From positions 96,001 through 160,000 of the forward strand of contig CAUVXB020000001.1 in the NCBI GenBank assembly GCA_963555825.3: DNA of 64,000 bases, given 5' to 3'. The number at the start of each line of letters is the position of its first letter. Position 1 is the first letter of the stretch. Source of the stretch: Alphaproteobacteria bacterium. Lineage in GTDB: Bacteria; Pseudomonadota; Alphaproteobacteria; JAAXGF01. Shown piece by piece: positions 3,569-27,926 of the stretch. The translations under genes and the position numbers were made by a program. The notes under the pieces were generated by a model. The model searched no databases, was not told where the DNA came from, and worked only from the letters and a program-made list of their open reading frames with translations.

Positions 3569-3630
3569 GGCGCCCAGCCTATCGCGCGGTCGGCGGCGCT
3601 GGATAGCGACAAGAATTGCCGTCGCCGTCT

Positions 3631-4959: not shown

Positions 4960-4960
4960 G

Positions 4961-5455: not shown

Positions 5456-5487
5456 GCGGCTAGCCCGGATTTCTCGCCATGGACAGG

Positions 5488-6291
5488 CTACTCGCCGCGC
5501 CACACCGGCGCGCGTTTTTCGATGAAGGCGTCGACGCCCTCGCCGGCATCGCGGGCGAGCATGTTGCGGGTCATCGTCTCGGACGCGTAATCGTAAGCCT
5601 CGGCGACGTCGAGCTCGAGCTGGTCGTAGAAGGCGCGCTTGCCCATGGCCATGGTGTAGGACGACTTGCTGGCGATCTTGGCGGCGAGCTCGGCCACCGC
5701 GGCATCCAGCTCCTCGGCCGGCACGGCGCGGTTGATCAGGCCCATACGCGCCGCGCTCGCGGCGTCGATCGCGTCGCCCGTCAGCAGCAACTCGAGCGCA
5801 TGCTTGCGCCCGACGTTGCGCGCCAGCGCGACCATCGGCGTCGTACAGAACAGCCCGATGTTGACCCCCGGTGTGGCGAACTGCGAACGATCCGAGGCGA
5901 TCGCCAGGTCGCAGGTGGCGACGAGCTGCAGTCCGGCGGCGCTGGCGACGCCGTCGACCTTGGCGATCACCGGCTGCGGCAACCCGGTGAGGCACTTCAT
6001 CATGTGGCTACAGGTGTCGAATACCCGCTGGAAGAATGCCGCGTCGTGATTCGCGCGCAGCTCCTTCAGGTCGTGCCCGGCGCAGAACCCTGGCGCGCTT
6101 GCCGCAACGACCACGACGCGCACGGCGCGGTCCTCGGCGATCGCGTCGAGTTCGCCCTGGAGCAGGCCCGTCAACTCGGTCGACAGGCTATTGCGCGCCG
6201 CGGGACGGTTGAGCGTCAGCGTCGCGACGCCGGCATCGTCGCTGCGCAGCATGATCGCGTCATCGGTCGCGGTATTGGCAAGGGCGCTCAT
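5488..6291 (-). CDS. Enoyl-CoA hydratase/isomerase
   Basis: LNRPAARNSLS, FCAGHDLKE, AAGLQLVATCDLA, TPGVNIGLFC. Confidence 0.9.
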   Translation of the reverse strand: MSALANTATDDAIMLRSDDAGVATLTLNRPAARNSLSTELTGLLQGELDAIAEDRAVRVVVVAASAPGFCAGHDLKELRANHDAAFFQRVFDTCSHMMKCLTGLPQPVIAKVDGVASAAGLQLVATCDLAIASDRSQFATPGVNIGLFCTTPMVALARNVGRKHALELLLTGDAIDAASAARMGLINRAVPAEELDAAVAELAAKIASKSSYTMAMGKRAFYDQLELDVAEAYDYASETMTRNMLARDAGEGVDAFIEKRAPVWRGE

Positions 6292-6421
6292 CGTAATCTC
6301 CCGGCACGGCCGCAAATTGCTGTGAGCGATGGTTTACCCCCGGGTGCGCCGCCGATCAAGTCTGCGCACATTGCCGCCCGGCGCGCCGGGCGATAAGCTC
6401 GGCGGCCGTTTGGAGGAAAAC

Positions 6422-6874
6422 ATGAGCGATCAAACCCCGGCCCGTATCACGGTCGAAGAGTTCGCGCGCCTGGCCGCCGAGAAGCTTCCGGTGGTCGCCC
6501 AGTTCGGCATCCTCTGCGAGCGCATCGAGGCGGGGCGGGTGTGGATGCGCATGCCGTGCGGCGACGGCGAACTGCTGCGCCCCGGCGGCACGGTTCACGG
6601 GCCGGCCATGATGACGCTCGCCGACGTCACCATGTACGTCGTCGTGTTGAGCCTGATCGGTCGGGTCGAGCTCGTCGTCACGACCAATCTGACGGCCAAC
6701 TTCCTGCGCCGCCCGGCGCCCGTCGACATGATCGCCGAGGGCCGCCTCCTGAAGCTCGGCAAGCGCCTCGCGGTCGGCGAGACCTCGCTCTACAGCGAGG
6801 GCGACGACGCGCCCGTCTGCCACGTCACCGCGACCTATTCGATCCCGCCGCGAGCGGACAATTCCGGTGCATAA
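6422..6874 (+). CDS. PaaI-family hotdog thioesterase
   Basis: RPGGTVHGPAMMTLAD, VTTNLTANFLR, LKLGKRLAVG. Confidence 0.9.
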   Translation: MSDQTPARITVEEFARLAAEKLPVVAQFGILCERIEAGRVWMRMPCGDGELLRPGGTVHGPAMMTLADVTMYVVVLSLIGRVELVVTTNLTANFLRRPAPVDMIAEGRLLKLGKRLAVGETSLYSEGDDAPVCHVTATYSIPPRADNSGA

Positions 6875-6925
6875 CAGCGCTTCGCCGAGGCGTCGGAGTG
6901 TGCACAGCGAACCCCGGAGGCATGG

Positions 6926-7156
6926 GTGAAGACGACGCGCTATTTCGACGAGCAGGTTCTCAGGAAGAGGCCGTATCTTCGGCGCGAGTGGTGCGCCATC
7001 GTAATTGAGAACCCGGTGCACCGGGAGGTTCAGCCGGATGGACGGGTGCGCTATTGGGGTTACGTCCCCGAGCTCGGCGAACGGGCGCTACGTGTGGTAA
7101 CATTAGAAGACGGCGAGACGGTCCATAACGCGTTTCTCGACCGCGACTTTGGTTAG
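6926..7156 (+). CDS. Small DUF4258/RelE-like putative toxin
   Basis: 76 aa ending LRVVTLEDGETVHNAFLDR; directly upstream of a DUF2283 gene. Confidence 0.6.
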   Translation: MKTTRYFDEQVLRKRPYLRREWCAIVIENPVHREVQPDGRVRYWGYVPELGERALRVVTLEDGETVHNAFLDRDFG

Positions 7157-7164
7157 AGGCGAAA

Positions 7165-7380
7165 ATGAAGCTGCATTATTACGCCGAGACGGACAGCCTT
7201 TACATCGAGCTCCAGGCGAACCCTGGGGTCGAAGCCCGGGAGATAGCACCTGATCTGGTCGTTGATTTCGACGCCGATGGTCACGTCGTCGGCATCGACA
7301 TCGACCATGCCTCCAAGCATCTCGACCTTTCGACCGTCGACACGGTCGATTTGCCTTTAATCGAGAGAGAGACCGCCTAG
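7165..7380 (+). CDS. DUF2283 protein (putative antitoxin)
   Basis: MKLHYYAETDSLYIEL...VVDFDADGHVVGIDI is the DUF2283 pattern. Confidence 0.8.
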   Translation: MKLHYYAETDSLYIELQANPGVEAREIAPDLVVDFDADGHVVGIDIDHASKHLDLSTVDTVDLPLIERETA

Positions 7381-7400
7381 CGGCACAACTCGGGTACGTA

Positions 7401-7432
7401 TACACTCGTGATCGCGTACACTCGTGATCGCG
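7401..7432. repeat. Perfect 16-bp tandem duplication TACACTCGTGATCGCG x2
   Basis: Directly visible at 7401-7416 and 7417-7432. Confidence 0.9.
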
Positions 7433-7597
7433 CGACGGCCCCGCCCGGCTCGGCGCGGTGATCCTCACGACGCTGACTGTTTACTTCACCATCGCGCCGC
7501 GGGCGGGGCGGTTGAAACACATTGCACTACTATAATACCGCAATCGTAATTTCTTGAAATTGTGTGGTTATTTTCGAATTAAACGTCGATTTACGCG

Positions 7598-7625
7598 TTG
7601 ACACGGAGATTTTCCGTGGCATACT
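7598..7625 (+). promoter_or_regulatory. Putative sigma70 promoter of rplM-rpsI
   Basis: TTGACA-N16-CATACT preceded by an AT-rich tract. Confidence 0.5.
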
Positions 7626-7681
7626 CCGCGCCTCCGCAAGCAACCCCCGGGGCCGCGCCGGAAACGGCGAAGGCGATCGAC

Positions 7682-8146
7682 ATGAAGACCTATTCAGCGA
7701 AGCCATCCGAGGTCGAGAAGAAGTGGTACGTGGTCGACGCCGAAGACGTCGTCCTCGGCCGTCTCGCCGCGGTCGTCGCGACGCGCCTGCGCGGCAAGCA
7801 CAAGACGACGTTCACGCCGCATATCGATTGCGGCGACAACATCATCATCGTCAACGCCGAGAAGGTGAAGACGACCGGCAACAAGCGGGACGGCAAGATT
7901 TACTATTGGCACACCGGCTATCCGGGCGGCATCAAGGAACGCACGTTGGGCGCCGTGCTCGACGGCAAGCATCCCGAGCGCGTGGTCATCAAGGCGATCG
8001 AGCGCATGATTTCGCGCAATCCGTTGGGCCACCGCCAGATGAAGAACCTGCACGTCTACGCCGGTGTCGATCACCCGCATGCCGCCCAGCAGCCCGAAGT
8101 GCTCGACGTCGGCGCGATGAACCCCAAGAACAAAAGGACCGCGTAA
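7682..8146 (+). CDS. rplM: 50S ribosomal protein L13
   Basis: [50 protein letters not shown]. Confidence 0.98.
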
Positions 8147-8149
8147 GCC

Positions 8150-8671
8150 ATGGCCGAGGAAACGCGCACGCTCACCGATCTCAAGGACCTGAAGAGCGCG
8201 GCTCCGGCGCCCGAGGCTGCGCCCGAGGCGCCGACCGAGGCGCCGACCGAGGAAGCCATCGCGCTCGAGCCCAAGATCGACGAACTGGGCCGCGCCTACG
8301 CGACCGGCAAGCGCAAGAACGCCATTGCGCGCGTCTGGATCAAGCGCGGTACGGGCCGGGTCACGGTCAACAACCGCGACATCCTGGTGAACTTCGCGCG
8401 TCCGGTCCTGCGCATGATCATCAACCAGCCATTCGAGGCGGTGAACCGGGCCGGCGAGTTTGACGTCTGGTGCACGGTGACCGGCGGTGGCCTGTCGGGC
8501 CAGGCGGGCGCGGTGCGCCACGGTATCTCGAAGGCGCTTGTGCTGTTCGAGCCGACAATCAGGCCCGCGTTGCGCGCCGGCGGCTTCCTGACCCGCGACG
8601 CGCGTGTCGTCGAGCGCAAGAAATACGGCAAGCGCAAGGCGCGCCGCAGCTTCCAGTTCTCGAAGCGGTAA
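8150..8671 (+). CDS. rpsI: 30S ribosomal protein S9 (APEA/APTE-repeat N-terminus)
   Basis: [47 protein letters not shown]. Confidence 0.98.
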
Positions 8672-8698
8672 TCCCCGGAAGGGCAATCCTGGTGTAAC

Positions 8699-8732
8699 AT
8701 CGGGCGCTCCGTCGGGGGCGCCCGATTTCGTT
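8699..8732 (+). terminator. Putative intrinsic terminator after rpsI
   Basis: ATCGGGCGCTC-loop-GGGCGCCCGAT stem followed by TTCGTT. Confidence 0.6.
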
Positions 8733-8757
8733 CCGGCACGGGAGATAAGGACAGGCG

Positions 8758-9705
8758 ATGACCGCGAAGGTTTTCATCGACGGCGAGGCGGGCACCACGG
8801 GCCTGCAAATCCGGGCGCGGCTCGAGGCGCGGGCCGATCTCGAACTGGTCAGCCTGCCCGACGACCAGCGCAAGGACGCCGCGCGCCGCGCCGCGGCGCT
8901 GAATTCGGTCGACCTGGTCATCCTCTGCCTGCCCGACGACGCCGCGCGCGAGGCGGTGGAGATGATCGATAACGCGGACGTCCGCGTGATCGACGCCTCG
9001 ACGGCGCACCGCACGGCCGACGGCTGGGTTTACGGCTTCCCGGAGTACGACGCGGGGCAGGCGGCGCTGATCGCCGGTGCGACGCGGGTCTCGAACCCCG
9101 GCTGCTACGCCCTCGCCTCGGTGGCGATCGTGCATCCACTCGTTGCCGCCGGTGTCTTGCCGGCCGACTGGCCGGTCACGATCAATGCGGTCTCGGGCTA
9201 TTCGGGCGGCGGCAAGGCGCTGATCCAGAGCTTCGAGGATCCCGCCGCGCCTGACCCGATCGACGGTGCCTTCCACGTCTACGGTCTCTCGCTCGAGCAC
9301 AAGCACGTGCCCGAGATTGCGCGCCGCGGCGGCCTCGCGAGACGGCCGCTGTTGATGCCCAGCGTCGGGCGTTTCCACCAAGGCATGATCGTGCAGGTGC
9401 CGCTACTTCTCGGCGCGCTGCCCGGTACGCCGACGCCCGCCGAGCTGCATGCGATCCTCGCCGATCACTATTGCGGCTGCCAATTCGTCACCGTCGCCGA
9501 GGAGTCGGCGAACCTCGCGCGGCTCGACCCGGAGAGCCTCAACGGCACCAATGAACTGCGTCTATACGTCTTCGGCAACGCCGAGCATGGCCAGGCGGTG
9601 ATCGCCGGCGTGCTCGACAACCTGGGCAAGGGCGCATCGGGCCAGGCGGTGCAGAACCTGAACCTGATGCTCGGCCTCGACGAAGCCGCCGGGCTCCGGC
9701 CGTGA
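8758..9705 (+). CDS. argC: N-acetyl-gamma-glutamyl-phosphate reductase (type 2)
   Basis: [49 protein letters not shown]. Confidence 0.95.
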
Positions 9706-10223
9706 CCGGCGGCGTCATCCTGCCCTATCAGGGGCGCACACCGCGCATCGCCGACGACGTCTTCGTCGCGCATGGCGCGGTGATCGTCGGCGACGTCGAG
9801 ATCGGCCCGCAGTCGAGCGTCTGGTTCAACTGCGTGCTGCGCGGCGACCTCAACGCCATCCGCGTCGGCGCGCGTAGCAACATCCAGGACGGCACCGTCG
9901 TCCACATCGACAGCCGGGAATTCTCGACCACGATCGGCGACGACGTGACGATCGGTCACATGGCGCTGATCCATGCCTGTACGCTCGAGGACCGCTGTTT
10001 CGTCGGCATGGGCGCGACGGTGATGGATGGCGCGGTCGTCGAGACCGGCGCAATGGTCGCCGCCGGCGCGCTGGTCACGCCGGGCAAGCGCGTGCCCTCC
10101 GGTGATTTGTGGGGCGGCCGCCCGGCGCGCCGCATGCGCGCGCTCACCGACGAGGACACCAGCCTCTTCGCCGAGATCGTCGACGGATACGTCCGCCTCG
10201 CCGCGAACTACGCTAGAGAATAA
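9702..10223 (+). CDS. Gamma carbonic anhydrase family protein (YrdA-like)
   Basis: Hexapeptide repeats; VLRGD, SNIQDG, TIGH, IHAC. Confidence 0.92.
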
Positions 10224-10339
10224 TCCGATCGATTGGAATCGGTCGGATTATGCCAGCCTGCGACCGCAGGCCGCCGCTTATGCGGCGAAAGCTTGCGCGG
10301 CGATTGAGCGCAGGCCATCTTTACCCAGTAAAGATGGCC
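10220..10339 (+). repeat. Four-hairpin intergenic repeat, family A, copy 1
   Basis: Shares core GCCAGCCYGCGACCGCRGGCCGCCG...GCGATTGARCGCAG and terminal hairpins with 16888-17013, 33480-33601, 44651-44829. Confidence 0.85.
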
Positions 10340-10456
10340 GGAAAAAATGGGTTAGGGGGTTAACCCCTAACCGCCCGCCCCAGGGGAGAGGCGGCCTTCA
10401 CGTTCCCGGGCGCTCACCCTTGATGCGACACCCATCGCAATTTTCGAGGCGGATTC

Positions 10457-10726
10457 ATGGAACAGGAAAAACCGCGGCCGGGATGGGTGCGGACATTCTT
10501 GGCGCTCGTCTTGCTGGTCATCGGGGTCGGTATATGGACTTCCGTTGTGACGGCTATGGGCGATCCTCCTTTATTGGGCGAGGTCGGCACACTGGCTATT
10601 TTTGCTGTAGTTTTCGTCGGATTTTTCCGTTCAAAATCATCTCCCGCGGCAAAAACCGACCCAACACCGTCTCGCCCCAACAACCCGACGGTTGTGCGAA
10701 AAACTCTGAGTTGGTGGAAAAAATGA
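10457..10726 (+). CDS. Hypothetical two-TM small membrane protein
   Basis: Two hydrophobic segments, GAGGCGGA upstream, lower GC than flanks. Confidence 0.6.
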   Translation: MEQEKPRPGWVRTFLALVLLVIGVGIWTSVVTAMGDPPLLGEVGTLAIFAVVFVGFFRSKSSPAAKTDPTPSRPNNPTVVRKTLSWWKK

Positions 10727-11066
10727 TGCGCGCCGGATTGTCCAAACCCTCGATTTCGCATGTTTTCCATTGGCGCTCGCGGCTGACTCAGGCACCGGCC
10801 GCGTGTACTCGGCGAATCGACGCGGCCATTGTGATATACTCAAGCGATGGAACGCTTCGCCCAAATTCCGAAGCCTCCGCCGGACCCGCCGCCCGAGCCG
10901 GTGCGCAAGCCCAACGGCGACCCTCCGGACGAGCCCGGCGAGTACCCACCAGTCCCACCGATGGAACCACCGCCCCCTGTTCCGCCGCCGCCGCCTTTTT
11001 GAGCGCGAGGGCAATCGACGACATCGACATATACCGCTCTGCCGCAGCGTCCATAGATTAGCGCGG

Positions 11067-11134
11067 CGACGAGGACGCCACCCTCTTCGCCGAGGTCGTC
11101 GACGGCTACGTCCGCCTCGCCGCGAACGATGCTA
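11067..11134 (+). repeat. Second copy of the gamma-CA 3' end (68 bp, 62/68 identical to 10148-10215)
   Basis: Manual alignment gives 6 mismatches and no indels. Confidence 0.9.
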
Positions 11135-13220
11135 ACCGACTGCCCAGGGGAACGGCGGCTCGAACGACGCGGGCACCTGCTCGATACGGAACGGCTGGTC
11201 GGCGACGTCCGGCCCGTCGAGCGCGCGGGCGGCTTCGTGGCCACCGAACACCGCCTCCGATAGCAGTGCCGGCGCCAGGCAATCGCCGACCGCCCTGACC
11301 GATTTGATGCCGGCCTTCGCATTCGCGTCCTCGTCGCCGACGAGGTCGTGGTAGAGCGTTTCGTTGGGACTGCGCATGGTGACCAGGATGACGCTCGAGG
11401 CATTCAGGAAACGGGCCGGTTCACCGTAGACTCCAGTCACCTCGACCTCGCTCTCGGAGATCGCCGCGAGATTGTGGTTGGCGAGAACGGCGACGCCCGA
11501 CGCGACCAGCCGCCGCTGGATCTCTGCCAGGTCCAGGGTGTAGAGCGTCCAGGGCGAGACCTGGGCGAGTGGCGTGACGATGGTGACGTCATGGCCTTCG
11601 CCGGCCAGCTTCTCGGCCAGGCAGCCGCCCATGACATAGGTATCGTCATCGAAGATCACGACCGGCGAACGGACCTCGGCGCCGGCCATGACATCGTCGG
11701 GTGTCAGCACGTGGTCCTGGGCATGGCCCTGGACCGGACGGAAATTATGCGCACCGACTCCGTCGCGCCGCCAGTGAGCGCCGGTCGCGACGATGACGTG
11801 CTCGAAGCCGAACTCGCGCACGTGATCGACGGTCAGCTCGCTTTCGCGGTAGACCGTGACGTTCGGCATCTTGTTGATTTGGCCGACGCGCCAGTCGCGC
11901 ACTCTGATCCATTCGGCGAGGCCGGGTAGGCGTGCAACGGCGATCAGGTGGCCGCCCAGCTCGCGCCCGGCTTCGGCCAGAGCGACCTCGTAGCCGCGTT
12001 GGCCGGCCGCGCGCGCCGCCTCGAGACCCGCCGGGCCGCTGCCGACGACCAGCACCCTGTCGCCGGAGCCCTTCTCGGGCACCGTCTCGGGGTGCCAGCC
12101 GCGGCGCCATTCCTCGGTCATCGTCGGGTTCTGAGTGCAGCGGATCGGCACGGTCAGCGAATTCGAGGCGAGGCAGATGTTGCAGCCGATGCATTCGCGG
12201 ATGTCCTCGGGTCGCCCTTCCTCGATCTTGCGCGGCAGGAACGGGTCGGCGATCGAGGGCCGCGCCGCGCCGATCAGGTCCAGCACGCCGCGCTTGATCA
12301 TCGAGACCATCGTGTCCGGGCTGGTGAAGCGACCGACCCCGACGACCGGCTTCGTGGTAAGCGACTTGACGAAGGCGATGCCGGGCTCTTCCCAGCCCTC
12401 CTTACGAAAGCGCGAGCCCAGCATGTCGTCGAAGCCGCCGACGTTGACGTCCCAGAGATCGGGCATCTCGGCCAGCATCTCGACCACGGCGCGGCCGTCT
12501 TCGGCGGTGATCGCATCGGGGCCGTATTGCTCGTCGACACAAAACCGGATCGCCACGGCGCAGGCGCCGTCGGCCTCCTCGCGGGTTTCCTCCAACACCT
12601 CGCGGAGCAGGCGGGCGCGGTTTTCGATGCTGCCACCATATTCGTCGCTGCGCTGGTTGATGCGCGGCGACAGGAAGTCGGTGAACACGGTCAGGCTATG
12701 GCCGACGTAGACATAGACGATGTCGAAGCCGGCCTCGACGGCGCGCCGCACGCCGCGACGATGCCAACGGCGCAAGGCGCGAATGTCGCTCTTGTCCATG
12801 GCGCGGCCCTGCGCCGGAAAGTCGCGCGGCTGCATGGGTCGCGGCGACGGTCCCATGGTCGGAATGCGCGTGTACGTGTTGTGGCCATACAGGCCGGCGT
12901 GCGCCAGCTCACAGCCGGCCAGCGCGCCGTGGCGATGTACCGCCTCGGTCATCAGCGCGTTGGTGCGCACGTCCTCGTCGGTCCACAGGCGCGCCGAGGC
13001 GGTCGGCGTCGTGTCGGCCGAGGGGTGGGACCGTGCACCACTCGGTGCACACCACGGCCCAGCCGCCTTCGGCCTTGATGCCGCGCATGGCCGCCTGGGT
13101 ATGCGGATACCGGTAGCCCGAGCCGTTGCAGTGGGGCACCTGGTAGAAGCGGTTCCTCGCCGTGACGGGACCGATCTTGACCGGTTCGAAGAGAATGTCG
13201 AAACGCGGATCCCTGGTCAT
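11132..13220 (-). pseudogene. Trimethylamine/dimethylamine/histamine dehydrogenase-like flavoenzyme with +1 frameshift near 13038
   Basis: NRFYQVPHCNG (FMN-linking Cys) in one frame; RECIGCNIC Fe-S motif and GSGPAG in another; deleting one C restores TVHPSADTTPTASARLW. Confidence 0.8.
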
Positions 13221-19447: not shown

Positions 19448-20884
19448 ATGAGCGCCACGACGAAAATAGAAAACGCGTCCTGGGTCATCGCCTGGGACGG
19501 CGCGGCCGAAAGCCACGTCTACCTGCGCGACGCCGACGTGGTGTTCACCGGCGCCGACATCGATTTCGTCGGCACGGGCTACGGCGGTACGGCCGACACC
19601 GTGATCGACGGTGCCGGCCTGATGGTCATGCCCGGCCTGGTCGACATCCACGCGCACCCGGGCGACGAGCCCAAGAGCAAGGGCCTGTTCGAGGAGATGG
19701 GCAGCCCGATGCTGCACAACACCTCGCTGATCGAATACATGCCGCTGGTGCGCGGCGACCTCGATGGCGCAAACGCGGCGCTCGAATTCGCGCTTTGCGA
19801 GCTGCTCAAGAGCGGCTGCACGACGCTCTGCGACCTATCGGGCGTGCGTGAGGGCTGGCTCGACACGCTGGCCCGAAGCGGCATCCGCGGCTACGCGGCG
19901 CCGATGTTCCGTTCGGCCCGCTGGTATACGCCGAACGGCCATGAGCTCTGCTACGAGTGGGACGAGGACGCCGGCAAGCGGGCCTTCGCCGCGGCGCTCG
20001 AGGTGGTCGATGAGGCCGAGGCGCATGACTGCGGCCGGCTCAAGGGCATGATCTCGCCGGCCCAGATCGACACCTGCACCGCCGATCTCCTGAAGGACAG
20101 CGCGGCGGCCGCCAAGGAGCGCAGCATGCCGTGGACCGTGCACGCCTCGCAAAGCGTCGTCGAGTTCCGCGAGATGGTGCGGCGCCACGGCCAGACGCCG
20201 GTCGAATGGCTCGACGGATTGGGCCTCCTCGGCCCCGACAAGATCATCGCCCACGCGATCTTCGTCGACCACCATCCGTGGCTCGGCTGGCCGACCATGG
20301 ACGACCTCGACCGGCTCGGCGGCGCCGGCGCCAACATCGCGCACTGTCCGAGCAACTTCGTGCGCCGCGGCATCTTGCTTCAGGACTTCCGCGCCTATCG
20401 CGAGGCCGGCGTCACCATCGGGCTCGGCACCGATACCTTCCCGCACAACATGATCGATGAGATGCGCTGGGCGGTGACGCTGGCCAAGGTCGCGGCGGCC
20501 GACGTCCACGCGATCGGCGCCGGCGACGTACTCGACGCAGCGACGGTCGGTGGCGCACGGGCGCTTGGGCGCGACGACATCGGCCGGCTCAGCGCCGGCG
20601 CCAAGGCCGACATCGTGCTGGTCGATCTGGCGCATCCGTCGATGCTGCCGGTGCGCGACCCGCTGCGCAGCCTGATGTTCTCGGCGCTCGAGCGGCCGGT
20701 GCGCGACGTCTACGTCGACGGCGCGTTGGTCGTCAAGGACGGCGATTGCCTGACGCTGGACCACGCCGCCGCCGGCGCGCGCCTGCAAGCGGCGCAGGCC
20801 CGCGCGCTGGCCGGCGTCGCCGAGCGCGATTGGGCGGGCCGCTCGGCCAACGAGGCCTTCCCGCTGTCGCTGCCGGTGCGCTGA
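19448..20884 (+). CDS. Amidohydrolase (AtzA/MTA-SAH deaminase-like)
   Basis: PGLVDIHAH, HASQS, AHAIF, HCP, LGTD, GAKADIV. Confidence 0.9.
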   Translation: MSATTKIENASWVIAWDGAAESHVYLRDADVVFTGADIDFVGTGYGGTADTVIDGAGLMVMPGLVDIHAHPGDEPKSKGLFEEMGSPMLHNTSLIEYMPLVRGDLDGANAALEFALCELLKSGCTTLCDLSGVREGWLDTLARSGIRGYAAPMFRSARWYTPNGHELCYEWDEDAGKRAFAAALEVVDEAEAHDCGRLKGMISPAQIDTCTADLLKDSAAAAKERSMPWTVHASQSVVEFREMVRRHGQTPVEWLDGLGLLGPDKIIAHAIFVDHHPWLGWPTMDDLDRLGGAGANIAHCPSNFVRRGILLQDFRAYREAGVTIGLGTDTFPHNMIDEMRWAVTLAKVAAADVHAIGAGDVLDAATVGGARALGRDDIGRLSAGAKADIVLVDLAHPSMLPVRDPLRSLMFSALERPVRDVYVDGALVVKDGDCLTLDHAAAGARLQAAQARALAGVAERDWAGRSANEAFPLSLPVR

Positions 20885-21098
20885 GGGTGGCCCGGGTCCA
20901 ATCGACATTCAGTAATCGCGGGCCGTCTGTCGCCGACCCCGATAGAGAGCCGAAATCGGTCTTTAAAGGAGGGCCAGACCCTTTTTTAAACCATTGATTT
21001 TAAGCCATTTTAAAGGGGTCTGTATTTTAAACCGGATTTGATCTGCGGCGGCTCGATGAAGCGCCGCGAGCAGGGCTAATCGACAGGATCCCCCCACA

Positions 21099-21548
21099 CT
21101 ATTGTTTGGACTCGAGGGCAAAATCCAGCCCGCGCGTCTTGCCCCACCACACTTTACCCAAATACAGCCCGGGCTCGACTTCTCTGATCTCGTCTCGAAC
21201 CTTCTTGGCAAAGAACGAGGTCGTGGAGTAATCGATGACGATGGTGTCTTTGCCGTCCATCCAGCTCGCATCCCGATAGACCTTGGCCACGATGAAGGTG
21301 AGGCTGAAATAGGTGATCTTGTTGACGAGCACACCTGCGTCGGCGTCCGGCGCGAAAATGTCGAACACCTTACCTTGCCAAGCCAACAACCTCGTCAATG
21401 CGGCCACGCTCTTCGAGAACAAGGAGCCGGCCAGAATCGCCGTGCCTCGAGTATCGCCGTTGGGTAGCTCGCCGGCGGACGCATTCTTGTAGATATCGTC
21501 GAGCTCCTCTCGGGACATCTGCAGCCATTTCTTGATCCGGTCGTCCAT
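21099..21548 (-). CDS. Conserved-looking hypothetical protein, possibly beta-barrel; third gene of the peroxidase cassette
   Basis: WQGKVF...IDYS...RDEIREVEPGLYLGK; GGAGG RBS. Confidence 0.8.
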   Translation of the reverse strand: MDDRIKKWLQMSREELDDIYKNASAGELPNGDTRGTAILAGSLFSKSVAALTRLLAWQGKVFDIFAPDADAGVLVNKITYFSLTFIVAKVYRDASWMDGKDTIVIDYSTTSFFAKKVRDEIREVEPGLYLGKVWWGKTRGLDFALESKQ

Positions 21549-21589
21549 TGCAAAACCTCCCTATTTCTCGAGTTAGGCTATGTCCTTGA

Positions 21590-22675
21590 TTACAGTTGGG
21601 AGTTCTGTTGCGCGCGAAACTCCGCTATCTCGTCGTACAACTCCTTGCGAACACGATTCATCCCACCAAGCGGTTTGTGAGCGCTGAGTGCGTTCCATGG
21701 ATTGAAGCTCATTGCCTCGCACTCGGCCATCGAGTTTGCGCCTTGAAATTCCTGATCCTCCACGACGATCGTTGCTACCGTGGTAAATGGCGAAATGTCC
21801 TCGTCCCAGATCACCGATGCGTCCTCGATCGGCATGACTTCGGCATCGCTTTGAAACTGCACCATGAACGCGAAGCAAGCCGGTGCCCGTTGCAGATGGT
21901 TGGCCATGGCGCTGCTCAAATGACCCGCATCGGGCTCATCGGGTTGGTCGGTGGTTACGGTCGAGCACGACCTGAGCGAGTACTTCACTGCAGAGGTCGA
22001 ATCGTCGCCGTATCGGTAGGGTGTGGTGCTCCAATACCGAATATCGAAAGGGCTCGCCGGCGTGTCTCGTGCTTTGAACAGGATCCACAGAGACTTGGGG
22101 TGACTGAGAAAATACAGCCACCGCCGGTCGTCCGCGGTTGCCTCGATGAAGCTCAGAAAGTCCTCCGGCGTGGCGGCGAACAAAGCCGGATAGCTGTTGA
22201 ACAGAAAGTCCTGAGCCAGGGTCTCGCCGCCAGTGAGATCCGCATCGGTGATTTCGGGGATCTTCACCGAGAGTCCGCGAAGATCCTTCTCGCGATCGTC
22301 CTCCGTGCTGGCATTAGCAATTCGCAGGATGGCGGGATAGGTGGCAGGTTTCGAAAACAAGCCACGAGCGAGCTTCTCCGGCAGGGCGTCGGCCACCGTG
22401 AATGCCGCGTCGAAGCACCCCAGGCTTTTCGCTTGGTTGAAACGCTTTACGAGACCGTCGTTTTTCAGCCGCTCGAGACTCACCTCCTTGATCAGCCGGA
22501 TCATCTCGCGAGTCACTTCCGCCTCGTCCGGCTGTACGTACTCTTCTCCCAGACCCAGGTCGGGGCTGTCGCCGCAGCTCGCCACAAACAGCGTCAGTGC
22601 CAGCGCAAACGTTGAGCGCTGCAATCGGTGCAATAGTGTTGCGGGTGCAGCGCTGTATCGCTTCCGTGACGTCAT
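21590..22675 (-). CDS. Catalase-related small heme lipoprotein (AOS/HPL-like fold) with Gln at the distal His position
   Basis: Lipobox FVASC; RFNQAKSLGC aligns with catalase RxxHAK; RGLSVK, DFLFN, YWSTTPY, SFNPW, PLGGMNRVRKELY (proximal RxxxY); start codon uncertain. Confidence 0.8.
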   Translation of the reverse strand: MTSRKRYSAAPATLLHRLQRSTFALALTLFVASCGDSPDLGLGEEYVQPDEAEVTREMIRLIKEVSLERLKNDGLVKRFNQAKSLGCFDAAFTVADALPEKLARGLFSKPATYPAILRIANASTEDDREKDLRGLSVKIPEITDADLTGGETLAQDFLFNSYPALFAATPEDFLSFIEATADDRRWLYFLSHPKSLWILFKARDTPASPFDIRYWSTTPYRYGDDSTSAVKYSLRSCSTVTTDQPDEPDAGHLSSAMANHLQRAPACFAFMVQFQSDAEVMPIEDASVIWDEDISPFTTVATIVVEDQEFQGANSMAECEAMSFNPWNALSAHKPLGGMNRVRKELYDEIAEFRAQQNSQL

Positions 22676-22724
22676 TTTGTCTAGGTGGGTCACCGGGCTC
22701 ACTGCTGTATGGCTTGATCCGTCC

Positions 22725-25586
22725 TCATTGCACGTCCGCGAATGCGGGATCGGCCTCCGCGCCCTTGCGGGCGACCCACTGGAGCGAGTAATACTCACTG
22801 CGGTCACGTGCCCAGGGATCGAAGACGTTGATGACGGTCTCGAGCTCGTCCTCCAGCTCCGGGATGACGCGGAGCAGGATCCGTTTCAGGGGTGACACCT
22901 CCTGCTCGTGGCCGTTCGGTTCACCGTTCTCCATGACCGTGCCGTCGGGGCCGTTGTCGTTCACCCAGGCGAGGCCAAACGTGGAGTAGAACTCCGGCCG
23001 GAAGCTCGAGGTGTAAAAGCGGTCGCTGAACAATCGACGCGACGCGTTCAAGATGAATACCTGGAACTGGGTTTCCGAAATCGCATAGCCGTGGGGCCGC
23101 GTCGTTTCGGCGAGCCAACCGACCACCGTGTCCAGGTCCTCGATGTTGTCGACCTCGCTACCGTCCCGGTGCCCCAGGCAGTCGTTGATCGGCTCACCGT
23201 CGTCGTCGACCTGCGCCGCCGTGATGATGACCTTAGCGTTGCACTTGTGGGTGCCGTAGACCTCGCGCAGCAGCTTCACGAGATTCCTTTGATCGGCAAG
23301 CTCATTTTTCTCGGCGTCCGTGAGCGAACCTTCGCGCTTCCGCAGGCGCTCGTCGATGAAGTCGTCGAAGCTGGTCAGCGACTTCAGCCCGTATTGCCGG
23401 CGGAACTCGTTGAAGCGGGGAACGCCGCGTTCACGGTCCCGGAGGATGTCGAGCGCCACCACGTCCAGCTTCTCCGTGCCAATGCCTTTCAGGCGCTTCG
23501 GCATCTTCAGATTCTGCAGAAACTGCGGGTGATTCTGCAGCGCCAGCTGCCCCAGCCGCTGGCGCCCGAGACTGAGCCCCCAGTTGGCCATGCCGCCAGC
23601 GTGCATCGCTTCCGTCGCGTCGCCGCGGAACGTTTTGACGACGGGATCCTTGCGCGTGATGACGTTAGGATCGTTGCCCAAATCCCGGTACTCGATCAGA
23701 TCGGGCAGCAGGGCGTGCAAGCGGTAGACGGTGATGAACTCCTCGGGGAAGTTGAACGGCGAGCCGAAGTGGTTCACGCCGCCGTTCACGTCGTCCGGAA
23801 CCGTCAGGTCCCAGCCTTTCTTGGTGCTGCCCGTGCCGATGATTCCCGGCCCGGAGGCAAACACTGAGTACCATGAAGTCGCCTTGGACCCCTTTTCGGA
23901 CATGCCGAGTTTGTCGACGACTCTGGCGAGCGCCTTCTCGATCAGTGGATGACCCTTGACCAAGCCGTACCAGTTGGAATTCATGGCGGCATAGAGCGGT
24001 TCGTCGTACAGCAGCTGCGGGGTCCATTCGATGGTGTGAATCTTGGCGATTTCCGCCGCCACGACGAGCCGCGCGATCTCGAACAGCTCGTCGGCGCTCA
24101 CTTCCTTATATCTGATGACCTTGTCGGCGTTGTCCGGATCGCGGAGCCCGGAATCGTCGTTTGGCGTCTGCGCCGCCTGGCTCCGGAACGCGTCGACGAA
24201 GGCGTTGTGCTCGCGGACGAACAGGTTGTGAAAGAAGCTCAATCCAATCGTCCAGTTGTCCGGAAACGCGGTGGCTTCCTGGCCGACCCACTCGGGATTG
24301 ATGTAACAATCGGCGGGATCACCTTGACAGCTTTCGAACGTCGGAAGGTAACCGAACCTGTCCCCTCCGTTGGTCCGTCCGTCGACCGGCACCATCAAAA
24401 GCTTGGCGGGGTCCCCCGGATCCCGCCTGACGCGGCGGCGGGACCGTTCGTCATAGCCGTAGATCTGCGACGCGTCCCACCACGCCGTGACATAGTTTCG
24501 CGTGGTCTTGTGCGCCCGGGAAAGATACGTCTTGCCATTGTGCTCGAAGGTCTCCGGTTCGGTTTCATCGGCGAAGAGCGCCGGATCCATTCGATCGCCC
24601 GGGCGGCATCCGAGATCCGCGGTGGGGCACCCAACTTTCATCGGCTCCTTGTCAGTATCATTGCGGCCCTCGCTCAGATGTGAGAACCAGTCATGGTTCA
24701 TGAACTGGATCCAGAAGGCGGCCAGCACGTTGAAGAAGGGCGCTTTCTTGTAATCGCAGTTGGCATCCGTGAAATTGCCCTTCAGCCCCATGCCCTCGTT
24801 GCACTTTTCGAGATTATCCTGCACCCGGGTGAACAGCTTGCGGCTGATCACCTGCGGGTCCGGCTTCAACAGGTCGATGCGGTCTCCGTGTCGATTCTTG
24901 GTCAACTCGTCGTAGCCTAGCCGCGGGAACGTCTCCTCGAACTGGACATTCCTGGCGAAGACCTGGCCGGTGGAGCCCATGGCCGGGTTCTTCATGTCAT
25001 TGCAAATCCCGGTGAGGGTCCGATGGCGGATGAGCGGGCCTTCGCAGGTTTGCGCGCCGTCATCGTCGACGCCCAGGTCGGCGTATTCGGGATGATCCTT
25101 CGGCAGGCGCATCTCCGGCCACGTCTTCACCGTCTGCCCGTCGACACCGTCGCGTCCCGTGACGTAATCCTTGAACGTATAGTTGTCGAATAGATTAAAC
25201 TTGATGAGCTCGATCCGCTCGTACTCGAGATCCATCAGCGCGCCATCGATGCCGAATCCGTCTTTCAGGAAGTGCCGTAAGAAGCCGGTGAAGGCCAACC
25301 ACTCGCCCGATTTCGAGTCGTCGTCGGCCGCGGCCCAGTAGTTTGCCCAATCGACCCACGGGGTGCTCCGGAACGCGACGGCCTTGTCGTCGCCCCGGCA
25401 TCTCGCCGTGTCTTCCTGCACCTTACCCAGGAAGCGATGCTCTCTGGTTTTCGCGATGGGCCGGAATCCCCCCCACACCATGCTGGTACACGCGACATAA
25501 TCATACCCGGCCACGTTCGAGATACCGACGTAAAGCCCCAGAGCCACCACGATCGCCAACACGGCCAACGATGCTTTCCTAACCAT
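22725..25586 (-). CDS. Peroxidase-cyclooxygenase superfamily heme enzyme, alpha-dioxygenase-like, with N-terminal signal/anchor
   Basis: AAFWIQFMNHDW, TAWWDASQIYG, LFVREHN, IAKIHTIEWT, EEFITVYRLH, RDRERGVPRFNEFRR, ISETQF, ASRRLFSDRF. Confidence 0.88.
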   Translation of the reverse strand: MVRKASLAVLAIVVALGLYVGISNVAGYDYVACTSMVWGGFRPIAKTREHRFLGKVQEDTARCRGDDKAVAFRSTPWVDWANYWAAADDDSKSGEWLAFTGFLRHFLKDGFGIDGALMDLEYERIELIKFNLFDNYTFKDYVTGRDGVDGQTVKTWPEMRLPKDHPEYADLGVDDDGAQTCEGPLIRHRTLTGICNDMKNPAMGSTGQVFARNVQFEETFPRLGYDELTKNRHGDRIDLLKPDPQVISRKLFTRVQDNLEKCNEGMGLKGNFTDANCDYKKAPFFNVLAAFWIQFMNHDWFSHLSEGRNDTDKEPMKVGCPTADLGCRPGDRMDPALFADETEPETFEHNGKTYLSRAHKTTRNYVTAWWDASQIYGYDERSRRRVRRDPGDPAKLLMVPVDGRTNGGDRFGYLPTFESCQGDPADCYINPEWVGQEATAFPDNWTIGLSFFHNLFVREHNAFVDAFRSQAAQTPNDDSGLRDPDNADKVIRYKEVSADELFEIARLVVAAEIAKIHTIEWTPQLLYDEPLYAAMNSNWYGLVKGHPLIEKALARVVDKLGMSEKGSKATSWYSVFASGPGIIGTGSTKKGWDLTVPDDVNGGVNHFGSPFNFPEEFITVYRLHALLPDLIEYRDLGNDPNVITRKDPVVKTFRGDATEAMHAGGMANWGLSLGRQRLGQLALQNHPQFLQNLKMPKRLKGIGTEKLDVVALDILRDRERGVPRFNEFRRQYGLKSLTSFDDFIDERLRKREGSLTDAEKNELADQRNLVKLLREVYGTHKCNAKVIITAAQVDDDGEPINDCLGHRDGSEVDNIEDLDTVVGWLAETTRPHGYAISETQFQVFILNASRRLFSDRFYTSSFRPEFYSTFGLAWVNDNGPDGTVMENGEPNGHEQEVSPLKRILLRVIPELEDELETVINVFDPWARDRSEYYSLQWVARKGAEADPAFADVQ

Positions 25587-25965
25587 CGGACGTCCCTTCC
25601 CGATTGTCTTTTGCAGCGGCTCTTTTCACCCTTGTCTGTATGGCCTGGTGACGCGACGGGCGACGGATACGCCGGATCGGCCCATCCAGTTGTGCGCGTG
25701 CGATCCCGAAAACCTACTTTATGCAATTTTAAAGAGAAGACATCAAATTTTTTTCATGTCTTATGACTGACATTTCCCAGATAACCTCCAATTCCGTGGC
25801 AATCATACGAAGATTGCACCACCATTCGAGTTGTTTTTCCTCCGCAACCATCCGATCGCTTGATTTTGGTGGTTTGGCCGTATTCGGAAGCCCATTCGGC
25901 CAAATTGTTCGTCTCCCAGATACGCCTCTTCCGGCAAGGAGTACCTGGAAGGGCAGGTTTTCACG

Positions 25966-26085
25966 ACCGTCGCAACCGACGATGTCGAAGCCGTCCTTCC
26001 CGAAGGCGAAGCGGGCTTCGCCGCCGCAGACATGACAACGCGTCGGGGCGGGATGAACGCTCTCGTCGCCCGACGTTCGCGTCAT
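25966..26085 (-). pseudogene. Truncated N-terminus of a CxxC-containing (methyltransferase-like) gene at the cassette boundary
   Basis: RCHVCGGEARFAFGKDGFDIVGCDG in high-GC DNA, then abrupt shift to lower-GC non-coding DNA. Confidence 0.45.
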
Positions 26086-26129
26086 CCTCGGCGGCGTCGC
26101 CCGGCGGCCGGAGGGTCCGCAGGGACGCC

Positions 26130-27926
26130 CTACTCGGCGCGCACCTTGGCGTAGGTGCCGGGCGCGTCCTCGATCGGCGTCAGCTTGCCCTCGCCCGGCG
26201 TGCGCGCCGCGATCTTCTTGCCCGAGCGTTTGGCGTTCCAGCGCTTCCAGTCGGGCCACCACGAGCCGGGATGTTCGGTCGCGCCGGCCAGCCAGGCGTC
26301 GGGCGTTGTGGCGATCTCGTCGCTCGTCCAATGGCCGTATTTGTTGGCCGCCGGCGGATTGATCACGCCGGCGATATGGCCCGATGCGGCCAGTGTGAAG
26401 CGCACTGGCCCGCCGTAGAGCTGGGTCCCGGCATAGGTCGATTTCCACGGCGCGATATGGTCGTCGCGTGTCGACAGGAGATAGGCCGGTGTCGCGACCT
26501 TGCGCAGATCGATTGGCACGCCGGCGAGCGAGATGCCGCCCGGCTTCGAGAGCAGGTTCTCTTGGTACATCTTGCGCAGATAGAAACTGTGCATCGCGGC
26601 CGGCATGCGCGTCGTGTCGGCGTTCCAGTACAACAGGTCGAAGGGGAAGGTATCCTTGCCCATCAAGTAGTTGTGGACCACGAACGACCAGATCAGGTCG
26701 TTCGAGCGCAGCATGTTGAAAGACGTCGCCATCGCCGAGCCGTCGAGAAAACCATCGCGGTCCATGCGTTCCTCGAGCGAGGCGATCTGTTCCTCGTCGA
26801 TGAACACCTCGAGCTCGCCGACCTCGGCGAAGTCGACCAGGGTGACGAAGAAGGTCGCCGCCTTGATGCGGTCGTCACCGGTCTCGGCCATGTAGGCGAG
26901 CGTCGCGGCGAGCAGCGTGCCGCCCAGGCAATAGCCGATCGCCGTGACGTCGCGCTCGCCGGTCGCCTGCTCGATGGCGTCGAGCGCGGCGAGCGGGCCC
27001 TCGGCCATGTAGTCCTCGAACGTCTTGTGCGCGAGCTTTGCATCGGGGTTGACCCAGGAGACGACGAACACGGTGAAGCCCTGATCGGTCGCCCATTTGA
27101 TGAACGAGTTCTTCGGCTGCAGATCGAGGATATAGAACTTGTTGATCCACGGCGGCATGATCAGGAGGGGCCGTTTGTAGACGGTCTTCGTGGTCGGCTC
27201 GTATTGCAAGAGCTGCATCAGCTCGGTCTGGAAAACGACCTTGCCCGGCGTCGCGGCGACGTTCCTGCCGAGCTCGAAGGCATCGAGGTCGGTCATGCTG
27301 ATGCGCAGCTTGCCCTTGCCGCGCTCGAGATCGCCCAGCAGGTTGTTCAGGCCGCGCACGAGGTTTTCACCCTTGCTCTCGATGGTCGCCTTCAGCACCT
27401 CCGGATTGGTCATGACGAAGTTGCTTGGCGCCATCGCATCGACGAACTGGCGGGTGTAGAAATCGATTTTCTTGGCGGTCTTATCGTCGAGACCCGCGAC
27501 GTCGTTGACGGTCGACTGCATCCAGCGCGCGGTCAACAGATACGACTGCTTGATGAAATCGAAGACTTGATTCTCGCTCCAATCGTCGTGTTTGAAACGG
27601 CGGTCGCCGCGCTCCGGCGCGATGACGGGATCGCTCTCGCGACCCATCATGCGTTCCGCCGTGTGCTGCCACAGCGACATGTAGTCCTGCCACAGCGACA
27701 TCTGCGCTTGCATCATCTTCGCCGGGTCGGCCATCATCTTGGCGGTCAAATCGAGAAACGCCTTGCCGATGTTGAGTGGGTCGGCCATGCCGAATTGACC
27801 GTCCGCGCCCTGCCGCTCGAGGAATTCGCTCAGTATGCGTTGGCTGCGCGCCGCGATCTCGGCCATGTCGCCCGAGGTGTCGGTGGCGCCGTCCGCGGGC
27901 GGCTCGTGCGGCTGCTGATCGGCCAT
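26130..27926 (-). CDS. phaC: Class I poly(R)-hydroxyalkanoate synthase
   Basis: GDRRFK, PPWINKFYILDL, GYCLGG lipase box, DHIAPW, SGHIAGVINPP, APGTY. Confidence 0.96.
   Translation of the reverse strand: MADQQPHEPPADGATDTSGDMAEIAARSQRILSEFLERQGADGQFGMADPLNIGKAFLDLTAKMMADPAKMMQAQMSLWQDYMSLWQHTAERMMGRESDPVIAPERGDRRFKHDDWSENQVFDFIKQSYLLTARWMQSTVNDVAGLDDKTAKKIDFYTRQFVDAMAPSNFVMTNPEVLKATIESKGENLVRGLNNLLGDLERGKGKLRISMTDLDAFELGRNVAATPGKVVFQTELMQLLQYEPTTKTVYKRPLLIMPPWINKFYILDLQPKNSFIKWATDQGFTVFVVSWVNPDAKLAHKTFEDYMAEGPLAALDAIEQATGERDVTAIGYCLGGTLLAATLAYMAETGDDRIKAATFFVTLVDFAEVGELEVFIDEEQIASLEERMDRDGFLDGSAMATSFNMLRSNDLIWSFVVHNYLMGKDTFPFDLLYWNADTTRMPAAMHSFYLRKMYQENLLSKPGGISLAGVPIDLRKVATPAYLLSTRDDHIAPWKSTYAGTQLYGGPVRFTLAASGHIAGVINPPAANKYGHWTSDEIATTPDAWLAGATEHPGSWWPDWKRWNAKRSGKKIAARTPGEGKLTPIEDAPGTYAKVRAE

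Follow-up and report, generated by a model that had tools for sequence, protein, structure and literature searches.

The window, the 64,000-nucleotide stretch of DNA analysed here as a whole (positions 96,001 to 160,000 of contig CAUVXB020000001.1, from the alphaproteobacterial assembly GCA_963555825.3), contains a set of three genes, compiled with their features in Table 1, which encode a large heme protein resembling the fatty-acid alpha-dioxygenases (alpha-DOX; gene 1), a predicted lipoprotein related to catalases (gene 2, of a family designated CAT1), and a small protein (gene 3). An earlier note on this DNA had described three co-oriented genes with gaps of about 40-50 bp, and this is what is found, all of them lying on the minus strand with gaps of 49 nt (or 28 nt, depending on the start chosen for gene 2) and 41 nt. 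The three-gene observation is far beyond chance, since over 1000 homologues of each protein exist in the databases and the order of the genes is found again in other genomes. The trio is probably the minimal version of a widespread, uncharacterised bacterial lipid-oxidation module.

Table 1. Genes and features of the three-gene locus, in window coordinates (ORF, open reading frame; aa, amino acids).
Feature	Position	Strand	Remarks
Gene 1 (P0001)	22725-25586	minus	intact ORF, 953 aa, ATG start
Gene 2 (CAT1)	21590-22675	minus	361 aa from ATG 22675; alternative GTG 22696 gives 368 aa
Gene 3 (P0003)	21099-21548	minus	intact ORF, 149 aa, ATG start
Predicted signal peptide or N-terminal membrane anchor, gene 1 residues 1-26	25509-25586	minus	MVRK, then hydrophobic stretch
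N-terminal domain, fold unknown, gene 1 residues ~27-185	25032-25508	minus	Cys33/Cys63 and RFLGKV...CRGG...PWVDWANYW
Catalytic heme domain with inserts, gene 1 residues 186-925	22812-25031	minus	from alignments with rice alpha-DOX and the Calothrix alpha-DOX-like protein
Predicted lipoprotein signal peptide of gene 2	22574-22675	minus	lipobox LFVAS-Cys34 (...ALALTLFVAS-C34)
Presumed promoter region of the trio	25587-26129	minus	543-bp upstream non-coding stretch, partly AT-rich
Possible bidirectional terminator	20962-20990	.	inverted repeat with T/A runs in the convergent gap between the amidohydrolase gene and gene 3

Gene 1 belongs to the Pfam family PF03098 (An_peroxidase, E 9.7e-64), the match beginning at residue 189. 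Its best phmmer matches in the PDB were the alpha-DOX enzymes from rice (4kvj, E 1.1e-55) and Arabidopsis (4hhr, E 1.5e-50), with 4kvl in the same range of 1e-55 to 1e-50, whereas the lacto- and myeloperoxidases that followed reached E 3e-5 or weaker; no cyclooxygenase was present among the 11 PDB matches at E <= 0.001. The claim of the earlier note that this is an alpha-DOX-like protein and not an ordinary peroxidase is borne out by this separation, and the plant-enzyme motifs it had named are all found (WIQFMNHDW, AKIHTIEWT, EEFITVYRLH and ASRRLFSDRF), each at the matching position of rice alpha-DOX in the phmmer alignment. Conservation was counted in a MAFFT alignment of 72 rows, comprising the window protein and 71 homologues of at least 850 residues from the fetched loci. 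His298 aligns with the distal histidine (rice H157, conserved in 72/72), His624 with the proximal histidine (rice H382, 71/72), and Tyr621 with the catalytic tyrosine (rice Y379, 71/72), which is Tyr in 4kvj and Phe in 4kvl, the latter presumably the Y379F mutant of the rice enzyme. His517, Trp521 and Thr522 occupy the positions of rice H311, W315 and T316, with the histidine kept in 72/72, and Arg850/Arg851 those of R558/R559, with the Arg-Arg pair kept in 71/72, such that all named active-site residues are conserved in 71-72 of the 72 rows. The roles of the tyrosyl radical, the heme ligands and the carboxylate-binding residues in alpha-DOX are set out in passages of PMC8720084.

Outside the active site, gene 1 shows the additional features that had been ascribed to it, namely a signal or anchor sequence, a long N-terminal extension (about 185 residues ahead of the catalytic domain), and Cys-bearing inserts. 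The hydrophobic N-terminus reads MVRKASLAVLAIVVALGLYVGISNVAG, and the N-termini of the homologues are by eye mostly signal-peptide-like or lipobox-like, some of these ORF calls being over-extended or cut; both suggest a protein that is either exported or membrane-anchored on the outer side. Of the 12 Cys residues, ten are conserved in at least 69 of the 72 homologues, and their positions suggest five pairs (33/63, 181/195, 262/277, 320/327 and 782/803), which together with the signal or anchor imply export. The N-terminal domain has no Pfam match, yet it is conserved in the homologues (Cys33 in 69/72, Cys63 in 71/72). Residues 186-925 align with a 584-residue 'peroxidase family protein' encoded on a plasmid of Calothrix sp. 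PCC 6303 (30% identity, E 3e-82), which may be CalDOX; relative to this protein there are several inserts in gene 1, and these bear Cys262/277, 320/327 and 782/803. Altogether about 330 residues are extra, including the conserved N-terminal domain and the inserts. These residues, the predicted export, and the GMC oxidoreductase and large cytochrome-c-like genes that neighbour the family in some clusters would suit a substrate other than a free fatty acid, for instance acyl chains within membrane or outer-membrane lipids, lipopeptides or aromatic compounds, so that gene 1 would serve envelope remodelling or secondary metabolism and not classical oxylipins. However, the His/Arg pair that binds the carboxylate in alpha-DOX is conserved, and phospholipase genes in the neighbourhood suggest that free fatty acids are released, and such a substrate appears unlikely to us.

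The second component of the presumed lipid-oxidation module, gene 2, has no Pfam match in its window form; relatives go by the name 'catalase family protein', and PF00199 is found in some of them. Searched against the PDB, a profile of 23 members found coral allene oxide synthase (AOS; 1u5u, E 3.9e-11), the AOS-lipoxygenase fusion protein (3dy5, E 6.1e-10) and MAP_2744c (3e4w, E 1e-8), with true catalases ranking after them at E 4e-6 and weaker. Comparison of the family with a bona fide catalase of a related genome by hhalign gave a probability of 94.9% (E 4.4e-8, 271 columns) and paired RFNQAK with RVVHAK, FNSYP with GNNTP, and RKELY with RVFSY. The proximal Arg343 and Tyr347 are invariant in 23/23 alignment rows, and RxxxY is present in 24/24 of the CAT1 copies that lie directly downstream of an alpha-DOX-like gene, the window included. 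On the distal side, the asparagine is retained (Asn160, nearly invariant), and the position of the histidine of catalases and coral AOS is occupied by Gln81, with Gln in at least 90% of the alignment rows. The pattern R[FV]NQxK occurs in 19 of the 24 adjacent copies; of the five missing it, the sole one inspected (L015) reads RFNQPV. The paralogue CAT3, about 30% identical to CAT1, has Asn at the distal His position (RGGNTK).

Homology to the catalase core and the lipobox at Cys34 agree with the catalase-fold lipoprotein proposed before. Gene 2 is predicted to be a lipoprotein by the usual lipobox rule, and a lipobox-like Cys following a hydrophobic stretch was seen by eye at the Cys34 column in 15 of 21 CAT1 alignment rows. 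The further proposal of a hydroperoxide-processing partner holds as far as the protein is catalase-related and encoded next to a dioxygenase, but it is not a canonical AOS or hydroperoxide lyase (HPL), and chemistry of either type cannot simply be assumed, because Gln replaces the distal His. A prediction of the complex between CAT1 residues 41-361 and the small protein gave no answer (score 0.00) and weighs neither way on binding. As to the gene call, ATG 22675 or GTG 22696 is a more likely start than GTG 22807, and the database entry P0124 corresponds to the 368-residue form starting at GTG 22696. A reading of 405 residues (21590-22807, from the upstream GTG 22807) overlaps gene 1 and is unlikely.

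For gene 3, which is preceded by a Shine-Dalgarno sequence GGGAGG, no sequence matches were obtained in Pfam (E <= 1), NCBIfam or a phmmer search of the PDB, and a profile search of the PDB gave best matches at chance level (E 0.8-1.5). The family is large, with 1469 of 1493 candidates at E <= 0.001 and 818 representatives at the 50%-identity level. An assignment to GXWXG/DUF4334 (PF14231/PF14232), a feature-space lead of 0.87 in Atlas, was not borne out, no Pfam family matching at E <= 1. With an alignment of 86 rows, AlphaFold2 (AF2) returned a model (pLDDT 84.0, pTM 0.80) of N-terminal helices followed by eight long strands that form a barrel; the single-sequence model (pLDDT 40.6) was unusable. 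The top structural match was Tcur_1030 (4mve), with a VIA-align Z of 13.6 and a root-mean-square deviation of 3.3 Å over 130 of 149 residues at 18% identity, the next best match having a Z of 9.3, and in Foldseek 4mve was the sole match at E <= 0.001 (E 1.4e-4, TM 0.60). Designed barrels, lipocalins and avidins (Z 6-9), apoM, fatty-acid-binding proteins (Foldseek E about 0.02) and bile-acid-binding proteins occupy the lower ranks and indicate the fold class only. The structure prediction advised in the earlier note has thus delivered a protein that models as a calycin-type eight-stranded beta-barrel, with lipid-binding proteins among its lower-ranked neighbours.

The location of this barrel departs from what had been expected. 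Gene 3 has no signal peptide, and long forms of the small protein (261-274 residues; L015, L017, L022 and L066) carry one N-terminal hydrophobic helix followed by basic residues. In P0407 and P0441 the small-barrel domain is N-terminal to a RoxA-like cytochrome c domain, with one transmembrane helix between them in P0407; P0432 is a P450 with the small-barrel domain at its C-terminus, and in P0377 the domain is, by eye, seemingly joined to a relative of a 434-residue membrane protein. Domains of c-type cytochromes mature outside the cytoplasm, and because they are fusion partners here, the gene 3 barrel is placed by inference on the cytoplasmic side. Of the wholly extracytoplasmic pathway formulated earlier, genes 1 and 2, with their export signals, remain, but gene 3 has no signal and would lie on the cytoplasmic side of the anchor in the fused and long forms.

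The search for related loci with P0001 returned 80, of which 75 had a close homologue after ORF calling and clustering; L036, L064 and L082 (peroxidase ORF running off the contig end) and L080 and L081 (an outgroup family at 32% identity) were dropped before the counts. Among the 67 informative loci with at least 2 kb of downstream sequence, CAT1 lies directly downstream of the alpha-DOX-like gene in 23, the small protein is encoded no more than 1.5 kb downstream of it in 21, and the full trio occurs in the order of the window in 18, which belong to other phyla. The joint occurrence of the three genes elsewhere, on which the earlier reading had been staked beforehand, is therefore observed in these 18 of 67 loci. 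Within 10 kb of the alpha-DOX-like gene in the 75 loci, the small protein was counted in 33, a catalase-like protein of CAT1/CAT3 size in 29, a DyP-like peroxidase in 21, RoxA-like cytochromes in 14 (usually as a tandem pair), a GMC oxidoreductase in 9, P450 in 8, patatin and Tle1-like lipase in 7 each, and lipoxygenase in 6. The lipoxygenase, P450, patatin and Tle1-like lipase genes that adjoin the family in other genomes fit the proposed link to lipid chemistry.

These neighbours, together with the residues described above, also bear on a more conventional explanation, in which genes 1 and 2 would be a surface or periplasmic peroxide-defence pair, gene 1 acting as an ordinary heme peroxidase, gene 2 as a peroxidase or catalase substitute against H2O2 or lipid hydroperoxides, and gene 3 being unrelated or accessory. 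Genes 1 and 2 do belong to the peroxidase and catalase superfamilies, the DyP-like peroxidase genes near 21 of the 75 loci would fit, and no PF00199 catalase was found in the own genome (G000, 99% complete) at E <= 0.001 by a search that matched in six control genomes. On the other hand, the residues that serve fatty-acid binding and radical chemistry in alpha-DOX (the equivalents of the Tyr, His311, Thr316 and Arg559) are kept in 71-72/72, gene 2 is devoid of the distal His needed for catalase turnover, and lipoxygenase and phospholipase genes are among the neighbours. Peroxide defence is thus an improbable function of the trio, and lipid oxidation is preferred.

Trio loci elsewhere usually continue with the 434-residue protein and, in most of those whose contig extends far enough, a DyP-like peroxidase and CAT3, followed by a lipase or patatin, and in two loci with two RoxA-like genes. 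An extended operon of alpha-DOX-like, CAT1, small barrel, 434-residue protein, DyP-like and CAT3 genes was seen in L006 (12877-19948), L016, L019, L035, L038, L042, L045, L048, L058, L060, L065, L068 and L070, with a Tle1-like lipase or patatin at the end in L006, L019, L048 and L065. The 434-residue protein is a membrane protein without a Pfam match, whose assignment as catalase-like (by a single-linkage ORF cluster) was ruled out by BLAST, and the DyP-like protein of about 508 residues has weak Pfam matches only. A second arrangement combines the alpha-DOX-like gene with tandem membrane-anchored RoxA-like di-heme cytochromes c (L015, 13907-18164, as well as L017, L022, L066, L073, L078, L007 and L004), followed in four loci by a long small-barrel protein (261-274 residues) with an N-terminal transmembrane helix. 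Two alpha-DOX-like copies per assembly were found in a metagenome-assembled genome (MAG) of Bryobacteraceae, on two contigs (L008, L011), and in a Thermoanaerobaculia MAG, on one contig (L054, L056), which suggests paralogy within genomes.

The alpha-DOX-like family is broadly distributed. P0001 has 3303 matches at E <= 0.001 among 8000 candidates scored, the best 120 of which are 64-87% identical and come from many phyla, and the family remains 57-68% identical across Pseudomonadota, Acidobacteriota, Thermodesulfobacteriota, Nitrospirota and other phyla. Within the own lineage it is rare, being found in 0 of 12 genomes of the same family and only once in a sample of 300 other genomes of the class, and the trio in the window was probably acquired horizontally. 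In a FastTree phylogeny of 75 peroxidase rows, most loci with the trio plus a DyP-like gene fall into one clade of 25 rows (Gammaproteobacteria, Desulfobulbales); the window protein stands near the base, next to alphaproteobacterial copies linked to lipoxygenase, with deep supports of 82-91 (unstarred). The plasmid collection held no copy of the 950-residue family, only distant (27-31% identity), short alpha-DOX-like genes. On the mobilizable Calothrix plasmid pCAL6303.01 (L088, 4842-11590) a few genes separate the gene for the 584-residue protein from those of a GMC oxidoreductase and of a patatin-like phospholipase, partner families also seen beside the 950-residue family.

A different pattern emerged for the small protein, whose profile matched 5 of the 300 class genomes, none of the five having the peroxidase. 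G182 (L095, G182:C108:9000-24000, at about 2815-11620) carries a large cytochrome-c-like protein (c32), GMC, the small protein, the 434-residue protein, DyP-like and CAT3, and an alpha-DOX-like gene is missing from this region, from which it is evident that this sub-module can stand alone. G192 has the small protein, the 434-residue protein and DyP-like, and in G021 two RoxA-like genes come after a long form of the small protein. From its occurrence in these modules it follows that the small protein is an accessory common to several kinds of heme-enzyme module and is not reserved for the dioxygenase; it is associated at least as tightly with other heme-enzyme modules as with the alpha-DOX-like gene.

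At the locus itself, the trio is flanked on one side by genes for a short-chain dehydrogenase/reductase (SDR) and, convergently, an amidohydrolase, and on the other side by those for PhaC and an OmpA-family protein, all of which look unrelated to it. The GC content in 1-kb windows within 21000-26000 is 0.555-0.62, versus about 0.68 in the flanks. Together with the 0/12 count in the same family, this dip makes the trio look like a small island that arrived by horizontal transfer and lies between the genes for the amidohydrolase and PhaC. The AT-rich part of the upstream region spans 25720-25900 (minus strand view), and a scan of 20700-26300 found no sigma-70-like promoter site. The terminator-like site downstream of gene 3 is a consensus match only, with 2 sites found versus 5.4 expected in shuffles, and the repeat possibly marks the end of the module. 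Twenty public runs contain the stretch or part of it, and four were compared with the window. Contigs from two RNA-Seq metatranscriptome runs (X18, X19) cover parts of gene 1 with a sequence identical to that of the window, the uncovered parts not being evidence of silence, and one RNA-library contig of 463 nt bridges the junction of genes 1 and 2 (22559-23021). These contigs are a weak hint at transcription of the trio, DNA carry-over being possible. In two sediment runs a variant related at 95-99% covers all three genes, with one contig bridging genes 2 and 3, and gene 3 has near-identical copies (93-99%) in several sequencing studies as well as on further contigs.

The analysis establishes the families of the proteins, the conservation of their residues, their export signals, the predicted fold and the co-occurrence of the genes, and with moderate confidence the trio can be understood as a fatty-acid oxygenation module, consisting of an exported alpha-DOX-type dioxygenase, a lipid-anchored heme-tyrosinate partner and a cytoplasmic lipid-binding calycin subunit. 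In such a module, gene 1, exported and disulfide-stabilised, would oxygenate a free fatty acid by means of its heme and a Tyr621 radical, the carboxylate of the fatty acid being held by His517 and Arg851, and the most likely product would be a 2-hydroperoxy fatty acid that proceeds to the aldehyde shorter by one carbon and CO2. Gene 2, as a lipid-anchored heme-tyrosinate protein, would most likely take over an unstable hydroperoxide or peracid-like product for reduction or rearrangement, by a chemistry that must differ from that of catalase and coral AOS because Gln replaces the distal His. Gene 3, on the cytoplasmic side, would most likely be a subunit that several lipid-oxidizing heme enzymes share and that binds the hydrophobic substrate or the product, either to carry or to sense it. 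What we infer in this scheme are the substrate, the products, the sequence of the reactions and the part played by gene 3. Compared with the earlier note, the three-gene observation is confirmed and fatty-acid oxygenation remains the best reading, but the location of gene 3 and the AOS/HPL identity of gene 2 had to be revised, and the window holds only a minimal version of the system.

Several observations weigh against this assignment. About 9 of the 24 adjacent CAT1 copies are without any export signal, and the hydroperoxide-cleaving role of gene 2 is putative, its distal His being Gln. A simple three-step channel is unlikely, because the products of genes 1 and 2 are predicted to lie beyond the cytoplasm, and that of gene 3 within it. 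The literature found, limited to open-access papers, contains no enzymology for any of the three families. None of the partner families occurs within 10 kb in 22 of the 75 loci, five of which have less than 900 bp downstream, and three of the five small-protein genomes, those examined (G182, G192 and G021), have their clusters without an alpha-DOX-like gene. Loci consisting of the trio only were found in 0 of 18 cases elsewhere, and since every trio locus elsewhere continues with further genes, the module in the window may be truncated. In the own genome, the queries used found neither the DyP-like protein nor the 434-residue protein nor a second CAT1-like gene; the lipoxygenase Pfam model matched neither the own genome nor any control genome and is uninformative.

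The latter findings would also be expected of a decaying remnant of a larger cluster that had been acquired horizontally (alpha-DOX-like, CAT1, small protein, 434-residue protein, DyP-like, CAT3 and lipase) of which the complete pathway is gone. The low GC content relative to the flanks, the scarcity of the family in the 12 related genomes and the 300 others of the class, the further genes at all trio loci elsewhere and their missing counterparts in the own genome (the lipoxygenase query being uncontrolled) can all be accommodated in this way. Yet all three ORFs are intact and have kept the family-invariant residues, near-identical copies of gene 3 are present in several sequencing studies, the related sediment strain keeps all three genes, and RNA-library contigs match gene 1, so that decay is given little credence. 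A minimal fatty-acid oxygenation module is retained as the preferred description.

To our knowledge, bacterial oxylipin biology has so far consisted of a few systems, namely the diol synthase of Pseudomonas and, in cyanobacteria, alpha-DOX as well as lipoxygenase and 10S-dioxygenase (10S-DOX) accompanied by catalase-related partners. Against this background, the exported alpha-DOX-type family is strongly conserved in many phyla, with several thousand database members, and stands repeatedly beside lipid-oxidizing heme enzymes and phospholipases. The window offers its smallest version, three genes, as a convenient entry point to the substrate and product of the dioxygenase; the trio could reveal what the catalase fold does with Gln in place of the catalytic His, and it could show what the new calycin family does, members of which also occur as fusions with P450 and RoxA-like enzymes. 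Enzymes of the alpha-DOX type are of applied interest for the production of fatty aldehydes. A much wider and speculative possibility, which we consider rather doubtful at present, is that the 950-residue family is the hub of many unstudied envelope lipid-oxidation systems, built as mosaic heme-enzyme modules (catalase-like with distal Gln or Asn, DyP-like, tandem RoxA-like, P450, lipoxygenase), fed by phospholipases and having the cytoplasmic calycin subunit in common. The His-less catalase-like enzymes might then perform a new heme-tyrosinate reaction on alpha-hydroperoxy acids, and the products might be new oxylipin or aldehyde signals or envelope modifications.

With regard to known systems, an open-access literature search found no paper on the 950-residue exported family, the Gln-distal catalase-like family, the small-barrel family or their clusters. 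The assertion that such a system is undescribed in Alphaproteobacteria has to be qualified: no paper on the module was found, but InterPro searches have already turned up homologues of alpha-DOX in Proteobacteria, Acidobacteria and Bacteroidetes, and the passages of PMC8720084 that deal with them speak of characterised bacterial members only from cyanobacteria. The plant enzymes (rice 4KVJ/4KVK, Arabidopsis 4HHR/4HHS), described in the same passages as monotopic membrane proteins, and the cyanobacterial CalDOX and LepDOX share with gene 1 the An_peroxidase fold family, in which its best PDB matches lie, the distal and proximal His, the catalytic Tyr, HTI(D/E)WT and the Arg-Arg pair. In size and architecture, gene 1 is outside the range of these characterised enzymes (about 580-650 residues, no signal peptide), as its 953 residues add a signal or anchor, a 185-residue N-terminal domain, inserts and five Cys pairs at about 30% identity.

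The best solved relatives of gene 2, coral AOS (1U5U; AOS-lipoxygenase fusion 3DY5) and MAP_2744c (3E4W), are small catalase-core hemoproteins, from which gene 2 differs by its distal Gln, its predicted lipoprotein signal and an alpha-DOX-like protein instead of lipoxygenase as partner. Gene 3 has its closest structural match in Tcur_1030 from Thermomonospora curvata (4MVE), a structural-genomics protein of unknown function for which no paper mentioning it was found. A periplasmic oxylipin pathway acting on free fatty acids is exemplified by the oleate diol synthase of Pseudomonas aeruginosa (PA2077/PA2078), as outlined in parts of PMC5155153; it is the closest periplasmic analogue, but its enzymes belong to the di-heme cytochrome c peroxidase family, with a fold unrelated to those of genes 1 and 2. 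In Nostoc punctiforme, the linoleate 10S-DOX works with a separately encoded catalase-related hydroperoxide lyase, according to passages of PMC13049297. By analogy this is the closest precedent, a heme dioxygenase of the peroxidase-cyclooxygenase superfamily joined to a catalase-related hemoprotein from a separate gene, so that the pairing as such is already known; in the window, in contrast, the dioxygenase is alpha-DOX-like, its partner has a distal Gln, both carry predicted export signals, and a third gene of the calycin type follows.

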